DNA from: an uncultured Clostridia bacterium
GTDB taxonomy: Bacteria > Bacillota > Clostridia > Oscillospirales > CAG-272
Length of the DNA stretch: 64,000 nt
NCBI GenBank assembly: GCA_947627475.1
Contig: CANQWE010000001.1
Coordinates: 7,069-71,068 of the forward strand
Direction: 5' to 3'
Both the position numbers and the translations under genes were made by a program. Of the stretch, positions 28,112 through 32,313 are shown piece by piece (the stretch's first letter is position 1; each line of letters opens with the position of its first letter). The notes under the pieces were generated by a model. That model saw nothing but the letters and a program-made list of their open reading frames with translations. It searched no databases and was not told where the DNA came from.

Positions 28112-28162
28112 AAAGGAGTTCATTTTCATGCACAGCAGGTCTGCATGAAAATGAACTCCTTT
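28112..28162 (-). promoter_or_regulatory. 5'-leader hairpin / candidate regulated terminator of the glutamate synthase-glnA-ANTAR operon
   Basis: Perfect 21-bp stem AAAGGAGTTCATTTTCATGCA / TGCATGAAAATGAACTCCTTT with a 9-nt loop. On the minus strand it is followed by AUUUUUC. It starts ~8 nt after the predicted TSS and ends 34 nt before the start codon. Confidence 0.6.
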
Positions 28163-28176
28163 GCTCATTTGCAGGT

Positions 28177-28205
28177 ATTATACATCCTTACCTGCATTTT
28201 GTCAA
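28177..28205 (-). promoter_or_regulatory. Sigma-A type promoter of the glutamate synthase operon
   Basis: Minus strand TTGACA (28205-28200), 17 nt, TATAAT (28182-28177). Confidence 0.6.
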
Positions 28206-28265
28206 GAGAAAAATGCAAAGTTTCATGTGTTTTGCAGGTTCTTGAAAAAATATTGCAAAAAGGGG

Positions 28266-28294
28266 TTGACAATCCCATGATACAGGTGTAATAT
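28266..28294 (+). promoter_or_regulatory. Sigma-A type promoter of gdhA (divergent)
   Basis: TTGACA (28266-28271), 17 nt, TAATAT (28289-28294). Confidence 0.6.
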
Positions 28295-28379
28295 GGAAAC
28301 GGAAAGGCAAGGAGGTCTTTATGGGGACACAAGGATGGCCTGCTTGTTTTTAAGCTATCAAGGAAAATATATGTGGGAA

Positions 28380-28432
28380 GGCAAAGACGTCTTCATGGTG
28401 GGCAGCCGCCATGTAAGCGTCTTTTTCTTTTC
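28380..28432 (+). promoter_or_regulatory. Leader terminator-like hairpin (attenuator) upstream of gdhA
   Basis: aaagacgtcttcatgg / ccatgtaagcgtcttt gives a 16-position stem with 2 mismatches and 1 wobble, then TTTTTCTTTT. It lies 20 nt before the gdhA SD. Confidence 0.55.
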
Positions 28433-28452
28433 CCGCGAAGAGGAGGAACAGC

Positions 28453-29787
28453 ATGTCCTATGTAGATGAAGTAATTGATCGTGTGGTACGAGAAAATCCC
28501 AGCGAGCCGGAGTTTCATCAGGCAGTGAAGGAGGTTCTCGACTCCCTGCGTCCGGTGGTGGACGCAAATGAGCAGGCGTTCAGAAGGGACGCGCTGCTGG
28601 AAAGACTGGTGCAGCCTGAACGGCAAATCAAGTTTCGGGTCCCGTGGATTGACGACAAGGGCCAGGTACATGTAAACACCGGATACCGGGTGCAGTTTAA
28701 CAGCGCGATCGGCCCGTATAAGGGCGGGCTCAGACTCCATCCTTCTGTAAATTTAGGGATCATTAAGTTTTTAGGCTTTGAACAGATTTTCAAAAACTCC
28801 TTGACCGGGCTGCCTATCGGCGGAGGCAAGGGCGGAGCGGATTTTGACCCGAAAGGCAAATCTGACCGGGAGGTCATGGCCTTTTGCCAAAGTTTTATGA
28901 GCGAACTGTGTAAGTACATCGGAGCAGATACCGATATTCCCGCAGGGGATATCGGCACCGGCGCCCGGGAGATCGGGTATATGTTCGGCCAATATAAAAA
29001 GCTGCGGGGCTTGTTTGAAGGGGTGCTCACCGGAAAGGGACTTTCCTATGGCGGCTCTCTTGCAAGAACAGAGGCCACCGGATACGGGCTGCTTTATATC
29101 GTAGAGGAAATGCTGAAATGCCACGGCCAGACCCTTGCTGGTAAGACAATCGCCGTATCCGGCGCAGGAAATGTTGCGATTTATGCGATTGAAAAGGCAC
29201 ATCAGCTGGGGGCGAAGGTAGTCACCTGCTCGGATTCCACCGGCTGGATTTACGATCCCCAGGGGATCGATGTGGCCGCACTGAAGGAAATCAAAGAGGT
29301 AAAGCGTCAGCGCCTTACGGAATACAGGCAGTACAGGCCAGACGCAGTATACCACGAAGGCAGGGGCGTGTGGAGTGTGCAGTGTGATATCGCGCTTCCC
29401 TGCGCGACCCAGAACGAGCTGGATCTTGCAGATGCAAAGACTCTGGTGGCGGGCGGCGTGACGGCTGTTGCAGAAGGAGCCAATATGCCTACCACTGCAG
29501 AGGCTACCGAGTATCTGCTACAAAGCGGCGTATATTTTCTCCCGGGCAAGGCGGCCAATGCCGGCGGCGTAGCTACATCGGCTCTGGAAATGTCCCAAAA
29601 CAGTGAGCGGCTCCAGTGGACCTTCCAGCAGGTAGACGCCAAGTTGAAGGGGATTATGGCCAATCTGTATCACAACATCGAGGACGCGGCCAAAAAATAC
29701 GGCTTTGCGGACAACTTTGTTGTAGGCGCAAACATTGCCGGCTTTGAAAAGGTCGTAGACGCGATGAATGCCCAGGGCATTGTTTAA
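28453..29787 (+). CDS. gdhA: NADP-specific glutamate dehydrogenase
   Basis: 444 aa; [35 protein letters not shown]... is a classic GDH signature. GAGGAGG SD. Confidence 0.9.
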
Positions 29788-29927
29788 GTATATAAAAACC
29801 ACCCCTCCGGCGGCAGCCGCCACCTTTCCTTCCTTGCAAAGGAGAGGCAGAGAAGCTAACAGAGGAAGAGATAGGAAGATTATCCCTCGCTACCGCAGGC
29901 AGCAGAAAAAATAACATATAAACCAAA

Positions 29928-29985
29928 GGCAAAGGCGTCTTTCGTGCTTTTCAGCAGAAAAGACGCCTTTGCCTTTCTTTCATTT
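29928..29985 (+). terminator. Hairpin + T-run between gdhA and glnN (terminator and/or regulated attenuator)
   Basis: ggcaaaggcgtctttc / gaaaagacgcctttgcc stem followed by TTTCTTTCATTTC. The 5' arm carries the shared leader motif. Confidence 0.6.
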
Positions 29986-30002
29986 CAGAAAAAGGAGATA
30001 AG

Positions 30003-32102
30003 ATGATGAAAACAGTACCAAAGTATTTTGGAAGCCTGGTGTTTGACGACAGGGTGATGAAAGCGACGTTGAGCGCCAAGGTGTATGGGTCCTTGAAAAA
30101 GACAATTGATGAAGGGACGCCGCTGGACATTGGCGTGGCAAATGCGGTGGCTACTGCAATGAAGGACTGGGCAATATCCATGGGGGCCACCCATTATACC
30201 CACTGGTTCCAGCCCCTTACGGGCATTACGGCGGAAAAACACGACAGCTTTATCGCACCCTCCCCGGACGGTGGCGTAATCATGGAATTTTCGGGAAAGG
30301 AACTGATCAAAGGCGAACCGGACGCATCCTCCTTCCCCAGCGGCGGACTGCGCGCGACCTTTGAGGCGAGAGGATATACCGCATGGGATCCCACCTCCTA
30401 TGCGTTTATCAAGGGGCGGACACTGTGCATACCGACTGCGTTCTGCTCTTACGGCGGCGAAGCCCTGGACAAGAAAACGCCGCTGCTGCGTTCTATGAGC
30501 GCCCTCAACAAGCAGGCGCTCCGTATCCTGCGCCTGTTCGGCAACAATACGGCAAAATGCGTCCGTTCCTCTGTGGGACCCGAGCAGGAATACTTTTTGG
30601 TGACGCGGGAAATGTATGATCAGCGTCCGGATTTGCGCTTTACAGGCCGCACGCTATTTGGGGCAAAACCTCCCAAGGGGCAGGAAATGGATGATCACTA
30701 TTTCGGTGTAATCAAGCCCAGAGTCGCGGCTTTTATGGAAGAGCTGAACGAAGAACTGTGGAAGCTGGGCATACTTGCCAAAACAGAACACAACGAAGTG
30801 GCTCCTGCCCAGCACGAGCTGGCGCCGATCTATACTACCACCAATATTGCTACCGATCACAACCAGCTCACAATGGAGATTATGCAGAAAATCGCCGCAA
30901 AGCACGGCCTGGTGTGCCTGCTTCATGAAAAGCCCTTTGCCGGCGTGAACGGCAGCGGCAAGCACAACAACTGGTCCATCGCTACCGATGCGGGCCAGAA
31001 TCTACTGTCCCCTGGGGATACGCCCTATGAAAACGCCCAGTTTCTGCTGTTTCTCTGTGCGGTGATCAAGGCTGTGGACGATTATCAGGACCTGCTTCGC
31101 ATCTCCGTGGCCACTGCCGGCAACGATCACCGGCTGGGCGCCAACGAAGCACCGCCTGCCGTGGTCTCCATATTTTTGGGTGATGAGCTGAACGCGGTGC
31201 TCCAGGCAATCGAAACCGATACACCATACGCGGGCGCCGAAAAAACACAGATGAAGCTTGGTGTGGATGTTCTGCCCAAGTTTAACCGGGACGCCACCGA
31301 TCGTAATAGAACGTCCCCGTTCGCCTTCACCGGCAACAAGTTTGAGTTCCGTATGCTGGGGTCCTCCAACAGTATCGCCTGTGCAAATATTATGCTGAAC
31401 AGCGCTGTGGCGGAGAGTCTGAAAATTTATGCGGACCGGCTGGAAGGGGCGGAGGATTTCGCCGCGGCGCTCCATGGGATGATCCAGAAAACCATCCGGG
31501 ACCATAAGCATATTATTTTCAACGGCAACGGCTACGACGACAGCTGGATCAAAGAAGCCACAGAAAGCCGGGGACTGCTCAATTACCGTACTACGCCGGA
31601 CTGCATGCCCCATCTGCTGGACAAGAAAAACGTGGATATGCTGACCAGCCACGGCGTATATTCCCAGGCGGAGCTAAGGTCCAGATGCGACATTATGCTG
31701 GAAAATTATTGTAAAACTGTCATTATCGAAGCCAGTACCATGGTCACTATGGCAAAAACGCAGATCGCGCCTGCAGTGGAGGGCTATACAGCAGAGGTTG
31801 CAAAGGGCGCGGCGGCAAAGAAAGCGCTGGATACAAGCCTTGCCTGCAGCTACGAGCTTGGCGTCGTAAAGAAATTGTCCGCTCTTACCGACAGAATCGC
31901 AGGCAAGGTAGAGGAACTGGAGGACACTTTGCTGTATTTGCAGAAAGCGGAGGATGTCATGGCACAGTCCGCGATGATCCGAGATAGCGTACTGGTCAAA
32001 ATGGGCGAGCTGCGGGTCGCCTGTGATGAGGCGGAAACCCTCACCGCAAAGAACTGGTGGCCTTATCCTTCCTATGCGGATCTGCTTTTCAGCGTGCAGT
32101 GA
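30003..32102 (+). CDS. glnN: Type III glutamine synthetase
   Basis: 699 aa. The N-terminus [20 protein letters not shown] and the GS core ([33 protein letters not shown]) match the ~700-aa GlnN class. Confidence 0.8.
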
Positions 32103-32151
32103 GAAAGAAGGGCCGTATCAGGAAAAATTTTAAAAACATTGCACTGCACAG

Positions 32152-32180
32152 TTGACAAATTACGTAAAAAAGCGTATAGT
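32152..32180 (+). promoter_or_regulatory. Sigma-A type promoter of the purA-led operon
   Basis: TTGACA (32152-32157), 17 nt, TATAGT (32175-32180). Confidence 0.6.
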
Positions 32181-32264
32181 AATAAAGCAAGGCAAAGGCG
32201 TCTTTGCAGGACTCTCTGGCAGTCTTGATTTTCCCGTTTGCAGAAAAGCATAGCAGATAAAAAA

Positions 32265-32313
32265 GGCAATGGTGTCTTTAATGTATACGCATTAAAGAAT
32301 CATTGCCTTTTTT
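32265..32313 (+). promoter_or_regulatory. Leader terminator-like hairpin (attenuator) upstream of purA
   Basis: aaggcaatggtgtctttaatg / cattaaagaatcattgcctt followed by TTTT. It lies ~80 nt after the predicted TSS and ~85 nt before the purA ATG. Confidence 0.55.

Follow-up and report, generated by a model that had tools for sequence, protein, structure and literature searches.

Leader hairpins of nitrogen-assimilation and purine genes in an uncultured Clostridia bacterium as probable ANTAR-controlled attenuators

Why should one short motif recur, always in the sense orientation, in the leaders of several genes of nitrogen metabolism? The question is raised by a stretch of 64,000 nucleotides (nt) from an uncultured Clostridia bacterium (Oscillospirales, CAG-272; GenBank assembly GCA_947627475.1, contig CANQWE010000001.1, positions 7,069 to 71,068), referred to here as the window. 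Six intergenic copies of the motif lie before a glutamate synthase (GOGAT) operon, before the NADP-glutamate dehydrogenase (GDH) gene gdhA, before the type III glutamine synthetase (GS) gene glnN, and before purA. An earlier, sequence-only reading had proposed that a trans-acting factor binds the motif and blocks terminator formation, with a nearby ANTAR protein (22804-23394) as the candidate. A factor of this kind is still the best reading, and that protein the right candidate. ANTAR proteins recognise a hairpin in which a short stem carries a loop of six nucleotides, the first being A and the fourth G (A1 and G4; PMC3369931; PMC8934654). The motif copies are very probably hairpins of this type, embedded in leader terminators that would be read through when the ANTAR protein binds. 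Support comes from the anatomy of the leaders, the mutual exclusivity of hairpin and terminator, conservation, stem covariation, the specificity of the regulon and the features of the regulator itself.

The plus-strand copies start at 28306, 28380, 29928, 32191 and 32265 when read directly from the sequence. These positions and their sequences had been quoted correctly; the start of the minus-strand copy, AGCAAAGGAGTTC, had slipped by one base (28165, not 28166). The pattern RGCAANGRNGTYB finds 10 matches in the 64 kb where 0.92 are expected, a number that none of 100 shuffles reached. Six of the ten are the intergenic motif copies, one (29961-29973, minus strand) mirrors the palindromic terminator of glnN, and the three that fall inside open reading frames (6769, 7716 and 32601) are apparently due to chance. 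A covariance model of the hairpin, built from instances in the related loci described below and run over the window with filters off, scored the six sites at 20.5-34.4 bits. Apart from the mirror image of the glnN site (29955-29980, minus strand, 33.2 bits), its next-best match reached 13.2 bits, and this structure-aware model found no further copy in the window. The motif is readable on the minus strand there because the terminator between gdhA and glnN (29925-29980) is a near-perfect palindrome. That reading is antisense to gdhA, and no minus-strand gene follows it.

A generic scan for hexaloops with A1, G4, a C-G closing pair and a stem of at least 5 base pairs (bp) proved too unspecific to serve as a detector. 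It returned 18 matches in the window against about 10 expected, and the extra ones (15946, 18181, 45012 and others) are unrelated. Matches on the minus strand at 22701 (GGCAATGATGCC) and 1368, each of which lies inside a T-box leader, were taken as chance.

All six copies fold into a mini-hairpin with a stem of 5-8 bp, in which a C-G closing pair is followed by a G.U pair, and with a hexaloop of the form AANGNN. A1 and G4 are present in all six loops (Table 1). The sequence-only reading had seen no clear match to the ANTAR target, and on this point it was mistaken: every copy is an A1/G4 hexaloop hairpin, and the consensus of the copies is near-identical to the site of GnfR. This ANTAR response regulator of Geobacter sulfurreducens binds RNA with CAGGCAAGGGCGCC and relieves the terminators of nif leaders (Ueki & Lovley 2010, PMC2995071). 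Compared with the GnfR site CAGGCAANGGCGCC, AAGGCAAAGGCGTC matches at 11 of 13 specified positions, and a C-to-T change turns a G-C pair into G.U. By the minimal definition of an ANTAR target, a single hexaloop hairpin (Walshe 2022), several hallmarks are found here, namely a stem of at least 3 bp under a six-nucleotide loop, A1 and G4, a co-encoded ANTAR protein and a match to the GnfR site.

The position of the mini-hairpins relative to the terminators is equally distinctive. The loop and 3' arm of the mini-hairpin serve a second time, in five copies out of six, as the 5' arm of an intrinsic terminator, and the two structures are mutually exclusive. When the mini-hairpin was enforced in folding, no stem abutted the U-run in these five copies, the upstream purA copy being the exception. 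As had been claimed from the sequence, four copies are the 5' arms of hairpins with U-runs; folding showed these to be strong terminators, with minimum free energies of -25 to -35 kcal/mol. Alone, the mini-hairpins fold at -2.6 to -6.1 kcal/mol, versus -19 to -35 kcal/mol for the terminators.

In the mechanism that we propose, transcription would stop in the leader because the weak mini-hairpin would be outcompeted by the stronger terminator. An active ANTAR protein would bind the nascent hairpin and hold it. By the time the U-run is made, the 3' arm of the terminator would then find nothing to pair with, and the polymerase would read through. By analogy with NitR and GnfR, read-through would be expected under nitrogen limitation. 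The predicted regulon in the window has three parts. These are the GOGAT-GS-ANTAR operon, which would be subject to positive autoregulation; gdhA-glnN, with two units in the leader and one between the genes; and purA-guaA. Where one to three units are stacked in tandem, they could act as successive checkpoints.

The promoters in the window are strong and sigma-70-like, and in the GOGAT (gltB-type), gdhA and purA leaders only 6-8 nt separate the end of the promoter from the first hairpin. It had been suggested that in the gdhA and purA leaders the first copy sits at the predicted 5' end of the transcript and the second about 70 nt further on. Both points are borne out, with promoters ending 8 nt upstream and copies spaced exactly 74 nt apart in each leader. 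The promoter scan of the window found none between gdhA and glnN, and the glnN unit is thus an intercistronic attenuator. It lies 140 nt past the gdhA stop codon, as opposed to about 20-35 nt in relatives. The first gdhA unit of the window has a weaker terminator, and related loci carry a clean one at its position. Similarly, the first purA unit looks like a decayed attenuator; the purC leaders of two relatives (L010 and L034) have a full terminator at the corresponding place.

A short GC hairpin, GGCGGCAGCCGCC, is found at 29809-29821, 22 nt past the gdhA stop codon, with a CT-rich tract after it. Its role may be that of a weak terminator or of a stabiliser. The spacer that holds it is missing in relatives, where the ANTAR hairpin comes directly after the gdhA stop.

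Recurrence of the hairpins was examined in 80 genomic loci, collected from an alignment of 15 ANTAR homologues and distributed among Lachnospiraceae, Oscillospiraceae, Acutalibacteraceae, Allobaculum and others. A structural scan for a C-G-closed AANGNN hexaloop with at least four pairs, and with a terminator that uses the loop and 3' arm, detected 154 hairpin-plus-terminator units in 1.14 Mb. Recognisable genes follow 130 of them: glnN (53), the GATase subunit of GOGAT (33), gdhA (22), purC (8), the GS-like gene (7), an ammonium transporter gene (4), and purA, guaA and the flavin mononucleotide (FMN) subunit of GOGAT (1 each). Most of the other 24 either are chance hairpins outside the family or resemble the family and lie at the end of a contig. 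When genes rather than units are counted, 30/31 gltB, 40/42 glnN and 12/13 gdhA leaders have a unit directly before the gene. Units also occur in the purC-purA-guaA and amt leaders of relatives; the purine leader that precedes purA-guaA in the window precedes purC-purA-guaA there. Internal genes of the operon provide a negative control within the same 80 loci, and none has a unit (0/34 for the FMN subunit, 0/9 for the GXGXG subunit and 0/74 for the ANTAR gene). In every case the motif has the sense orientation with respect to the gene that follows. As had been surmised, the motif in leader terminators is a regulon-specific signal.

A few of the 24 remaining units sit just past the ANTAR stop codon. 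In some relatives (L012:697, L018:2044, L064:2091 and L029:10601), a motif-bearing terminator (AAGAGC/AAAGGA/GTTCTT and a U-run) directly follows the stop of the ANTAR gene, which suggests regulated read-through into the downstream DNA. This terminator is absent from the window.

Some contigs among the related loci bear the titles Bacteroidaceae, Muribaculaceae or Paludibacteraceae (L062, L065, L067, L073, and also L079). They contain near-identical Clostridia-type glnN/GS-like/ANTAR/amt loci with the same hairpins, and are probably mis-binned. The gene for a 574-residue ammonium transporter on these contigs is preceded by CAGGGC/AATGAC/GTCTTG and a terminator.

The helix of the mini-hairpin is supported by covariation in 106 distinct 26-nt instances with an 8-bp helix. 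Its cells are 85.3% paired, as against 72.1% in shuffles, and 130 cells show double changes, as against 54.5; none of 500 shuffles scored as high. In slid registers, at most 58% of cells are paired. Two classes of stem can be distinguished, gltB-type (AATGAGC/GTTCATT) and glnN-type (AAAGGC/GTCTTT), between which pairs 6-21, 7-20 and 8-19 switch AU/UA, AU/GC and GC/AU. The closing C-G pair is present in 106/106 instances and G.U in 103/106. The A1/G4 loop is likewise found in all 106, a count fixed by the pattern with which instances were picked (C..G closing, AA.G loop, at least four pairs).

The putative regulator is a member of a large family, with more than 7,900 homologues at E <= 1e-10, many of them about 74% identical. 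Its ANTAR domain is clear (Pfam PF03861, 60.1 bits), while the match to Response_reg, at 23.8 bits, falls under the cut-off of 30.2. Alignment to Rv1626 and to the canonical receiver 4q7e places N59 at the position of the phospho-acceptor Asp, and 'VSAS' replaces the acidic 'VEDD'; N59, S14 and A15 are invariant among the 15 homologues. Loss of both the acceptor and the acidic pair makes this domain a pseudo-receiver, as the receiver of AmiR is (PMC3369936). The RNA-contact positions are conserved: H168 and M176, both invariant, align with Y164 and M172 of EutV, and AmiR has His and Met as well. In the window, the ANTAR gene closes the operon at whose head the gltB-type hairpin stands, an arrangement that implies positive autoregulation.

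How this protein senses nitrogen is a separate question. Because its receiver is a pseudo-receiver, it is probably not switched by phosphorylation. Neither the acceptor Asp with its acidic pair nor a histidine kinase is found, the latter having been sought in the operon (22804-28078) and the neighbouring trpB, and gene order is the same in the 80 loci. Switching by a protein partner or ligand is more likely. The combination of a pseudo-receiver with a conserved, co-encoded partner is that of AmiC-AmiR and NasS-NasT, and the partner gene here encodes a GS-like protein. It lies immediately upstream of the ANTAR gene in 73 of the 80 loci, the other seven having no upstream DNA. Similar to type I-alpha GS, this protein retains the catalytic motifs; about 12 residues are deleted, the C-terminus is shortened, and the score of 326 bits falls under the GlnA equivalog cut-off of 429. 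By analogy with those systems, the GS-like protein or a metabolite may control the ANTAR protein, and the GS-like protein is the leading candidate for the signal partner.

The layout of the leaders calls for a closer comparison with the textbook ANTAR element. In eut leaders, two hexaloop hairpins, P1 and P2, are needed together and are joined by a linker of 5-12 nt; antitermination is lost when 14 to 20 nt are added to that linker (PMC3369931). It might be supposed that the gdhA and purA leaders, with two copies each, contain the P1 and P2 of one such element with a long linker, and that the single-copy leaders have a P1 that went unrecognised. The identical 74-nt spacing in two leaders of the window would fit, as would the upstream purA copy, which overlaps no terminator, and the need of EutV for both hairpins. 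This explanation is nevertheless unlikely. The linkers here measure about 56 nt, as against the 5-12 nt of eut leaders, where the extensions just mentioned destroy function. Tandem hairpins are spaced 63-82 nt from loop to loop in 21 of 24 pairs, the others being 98, 122 and 176 nt apart, and are never closer than 63 nt. In relatives, moreover, and in the gdhA leader of the window, the upstream copy is equipped with a terminator and U-run of its own. For this reason the copies are tandem attenuators, and the upstream one is more than the second shared motif for which it had been taken. The gltB-type hairpin starts exactly 6 nt after a conserved TTGACA-17-TATAAT promoter in about 30 genomes, and the first gdhA, glnN or purC hairpin of related loci 8-11 nt after the -10 box. 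A promoter-proximal hairpin in this position is made of the first 20 or so nucleotides of the transcript, which leaves no room for P1; the same point had been made earlier for the glutamate synthase leader of the window. A hidden P1 was not found with the covariance model run with filters off, in the 50-85 nt upstream in more than 60 leaders, or in the apical loops of terminators. The classical pair of P1 and P2 with a 5-12-nt linker is therefore not what these leaders contain. Nor do they fit a scheme in which P2 alone overlaps the terminator, the purA leader of the window being the sole case compatible with a free P1.

Less probable still is that the hairpin is bound by some other RNA-binding protein or by a small RNA, and that the ANTAR gene is nearby by coincidence. 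Its receiver is degenerate, and the aromatic residue that stacks on G4 is His rather than Tyr, which might be thought to speak for another factor; AmiR, however, also has His at this position. The A1/G4 rule is a signature specific to ANTAR targets, as is the close match to the GnfR site, and the ANTAR gene belongs to the hairpin-headed operon in every locus with enough DNA. Very little probability attaches to the view that the motif is a generic repeat or terminator family that regulates nothing, or an operator that a transcription factor recognises in double-stranded DNA. In favour of this view, the motif is in part palindromic inside terminators, and at 29925-29980 it can be read on both strands. 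Against it stand the 130 of 154 units in 1.14 Mb that precede glnN, gltB, gdhA, the GS-like gene, purC, purA, guaA or amt, together with the constant sense orientation and the absence of the motif before internal operon genes. Against it stand also the compensatory changes in the stem, which keep RNA pairing and include G.U, a pair that has no meaning in DNA. Furthermore, the TnrA/GlnR box (TGTNAN7TNACA, up to one mismatch) does not occur in the intergenic regions 28079-28452, 29788-30002 and 32103-32396. The least credible alternative is a cis-acting metabolite riboswitch, for example one that senses glutamine, or a T-box-like element. The nitrogen-related genes and the leader terminators are what such an element would lead one to expect, but the conserved part is only about 18-22 nt long, without conserved flanks. 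The leaders match no Rfam family even at E up to 10, and the two T-box matches of the window lie elsewhere. Searches at the gathering score over the whole window, and at E up to 10 over 27900-32500, returned no ANTAR family and only spurious microRNA or small-RNA matches to long hairpins.

Several considerations weigh against the reading of these hairpins as ANTAR-controlled attenuators. Single-hexaloop attenuation has so far been shown for no ANTAR protein, since EutV needs both hairpins. The upstream purA copy (32189-32204) does not overlap a terminator, and the weak hairpin next to it is independent. In the covariation set, the loop and the inner four pairs were partly pre-selected because the picking pattern required them, and the free tests are pairs 5 and 6 and the outer pairs only. 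Most of the double changes trace to the single split between the two stem classes, so the independent covariation events are few. Finally, the 80 loci were chosen by proximity to an ANTAR gene, and the specificity counts hold for those loci, not genome-wide.

The similarities to known systems are extensive. GnfR sites (CAGGCAANGGCGCC) and the consensus here (AAGGCAANGGCGTC) are near-identical and share a GGC-stem hairpin with an AANGGC hexaloop. In both systems the sites overlap leader terminators of nitrogen genes (nif, glnK and amtB in Geobacter), and the regulator is an ANTAR protein. The systems differ in that the receiver of GnfR can be phosphorylated and a kinase, GnfK, belongs to it, whereas a pseudo-receiver is found here; the second pair of the stem is G-C there and a conserved G.U here; the nif targets are replaced by GOGAT, GS, GDH and purine genes; and the host belongs to another phylum. 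With the classical dual-hexaloop elements (EutV at eut, NasR at nasF, AmiR at amiE; Ramesh 2012, Walshe 2022), the hairpins have in common the A1/G4 hexaloop, the short stem and the conserved closing pairs. They also share the principle that the 3' half of the hairpin is common to the 5' arm of the terminator, with the protein stabilising the antiterminator. The difference lies in the layout, with P1 and P2 separated by 5-12 nt there, and here one hexaloop per terminator, units at least 63 nt apart and hairpins at the 5' end. In Clostridia, the ANTAR protein NitR of C. saccharobutylicum is described in a review as inducing GS and GOGAT genes upon nitrogen limitation by antitermination (PMC6316151, citing Stutz 2007). 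To the extent that reviews portray them, NitR and the C. thermocellum cluster Clo1313_2030-2036 (PMC4676874) resemble the present locus in combining an ANTAR gene with genes for GS and GOGAT. An antisense RNA is, by the same accounts, part of the NitR system.

AmiC-AmiR and NasS-NasT likewise have a non-phosphorylatable receiver and a partner gene conserved beside the ANTAR gene. Their partner, however, is a sensor with the periplasmic-binding-protein fold, while here it is a GS-like enzyme whose interaction with the regulator is suggested by synteny. In Bacillus subtilis, GS acts as a trigger enzyme for the nitrogen regulators TnrA and GlnR, which are DNA-binding proteins of the MerR type that recognise TGTNAN7TNACA boxes. 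A type I-alpha GS is thus linked to a regulator of nitrogen-assimilation genes in both cases. The present leaders differ in lacking such a box, and regulation here would take place at the RNA level.

The novelty implied by the sequence-only reading was overstated. Covariance-model hits before GS, ANTAR and GOGAT-like genes of Alkaliphilus, Caldicellulosiruptor and Carboxydothermus had already been listed by Ramesh et al. in 2012. ANTAR control of nitrogen genes has been described (Ramesh 2012, Stutz 2007, Ueki 2010), and the core mechanism is not new. What departs from the textbook dual-hexaloop model is the layout, the pseudo-receiver, the fixed partnership with a GS-like gene, and the inclusion of gdhA and of purC, purA and guaA. 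The text supplementary files of Ramesh et al. 2012 mention neither glutamate dehydrogenase nor adenylosuccinate.

Attenuation by an ANTAR protein would provide a concrete mechanism, and a candidate regulator, for ammonium assimilation in a large and mostly uncultured group of gut Clostridia. NADP-GDH, type III GS and the purine steps that consume amino groups would also join the nitrogen regulon predicted for ANTAR proteins. Whether antitermination can work with one hexaloop, in the short time that a transcribing polymerase allows, is a question that the EutV structure paper (Walshe et al.) raised and did not settle. The leaders described here are candidates for such a case in nature, and they offer a natural set of sequences on which to test it. 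The fixed pairing of the GS-like gene with a pseudo-receiver ANTAR gene furnishes a testable hypothesis for nitrogen sensing. If it is true, the GS-like protein would be a trigger enzyme for an RNA-binding antiterminator, and the purine steps that consume Asp or Gln (purC, purA and guaA) would be tied to nitrogen status along with GOGAT, GS, GDH and Amt. A bolder proposal can be built from these elements, though it is a tentative and rather doubtful one. According to it, the leaders would be natural ANTAR attenuators with a single hexaloop, without P1 and with the hairpin in the first 20 or so nucleotides. Their pseudo-receiver regulator would be switched by direct contact with the GS-like enzyme, and GOGAT, two types of GS, GDH, Amt, purC, purA and guaA would form one nitrogen-status regulon across gut Clostridia. 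Such a layout would contradict the 'successive binding' model of EutV, since that model requires P1.

Table 1. Mini-hairpins, leader elements and genes of the window (positions are those of the window; mini-hairpins are written as 5' arm/loop/3' arm, with covariance-model scores in bits; gene identities are from Pfam and NCBIfam)
Feature	Position	Strand	Details
gltB mini-hairpin, GOGAT-operon leader	28149-28170	-	AAATGAGC/AAAGGA/GTTCATTT; 8 bp; 29.1 bits; -6.1 kcal/mol alone
gdhA-1 mini-hairpin	28303-28320	+	AAAGGC/AAGGAG/GTCTTT; 24.8 bits
gdhA-2 mini-hairpin	28377-28394	+	GAAGGC/AAAGAC/GTCTTC; 26.2 bits
glnN mini-hairpin	29925-29942	+	AAAGGC/AAAGGC/GTCTTT; 34.4 bits
purA-1 mini-hairpin	32189-32204	+	AAGGC/AAAGGC/GTCTT; 20.5 bits
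purA-2 mini-hairpin	32262-32279	+	AAAGGC/AATGGT/GTCTTT; 31.9 bits
GOGAT-GS-ANTAR operon promoter	28177-28205	-	TTGACA-17-TATAAT, 12/12; -10 box ends 6 nt before hairpin
GOGAT-operon leader terminator	28106-28162	-	U-run 28111-28106; 5' arm = hexaloop + 3' arm of mini-hairpin; -31.8 kcal/mol
gdhA promoter	28266-28294	+	TTGACA-17-TAATAT; -10 box ends 8 nt before hairpin 1
gdhA attenuator unit 1	28303-28351	+	Weaker terminator ending TTTTT; -18.9 kcal/mol
gdhA attenuator unit 2	28377-28431	+	Terminator and U-run; -28.0 kcal/mol
gdhA-glnN intercistronic attenuator	29925-29987	+	Palindromic terminator to 29976, U-rich tail; -35.3 kcal/mol
purA-guaA promoter	32152-32180	+	TTGACA-17-TATAGT; -10 box ends 8 nt before hairpin 1
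purA unit 1	32189-32231	+	Mini-hairpin, then separate weak hairpin 32207-32226 and ATTTT
purA attenuator unit 2	32262-32313	+	Terminator and U-run; -25.3 kcal/mol
Three-subunit archaeal-type glutamate synthase	24664-28078	-	GATase_2 26984-28078; FMN/Fe-S 25479-26987; GXGXG 24664-25479
GS-like gene	23428-24639	-	403 residues; Pfam/NCBIfam
ANTAR gene	22804-23394	-	196 residues; Pfam; last gene of GOGAT operon
gdhA	28453-29787	+	NADP-GDH; Pfam/NCBIfam
glnN	30003-32102	+	Type III GS; Pfam/NCBIfam
purA	32397-33686	+	Pfam
guaA	33712-35268	+	Pfam

The promoter of the GOGAT operon has further features of its own. An inverted repeat, TGCAGGTA..TACCTGCA, spans the -10 box (within 28172-28250), and the pair CCTGCA(N36)TGCAGG flanks the -35 box. 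The latter recurs in four related loci (L001-L003 and L026), with one half-site in L047, and is not found in most loci. These repeats may be an operator for a second regulator that acts on DNA, or part of a divergent promoter.

Elsewhere in the window, a canonical T-box leader (RF00230, 120.8 bits) occupies 1203-1449 on the minus strand, and a tRNA lies at 57651-57723, also on the minus strand. A second, T-box-like leader is located between the ANTAR gene and trpB (20809-22041), at 22461-22726 on the minus strand. Its score of 82.7 bits (E=2.8e-18) is below the Rfam gathering score of 93. A TTGACA..TATAAT promoter of its own lies at about 22770-22742 and its terminator near 22430-22465, and a G/C-rich stretch of about 400 nt and odd appearance separates that terminator from the start of trpB.

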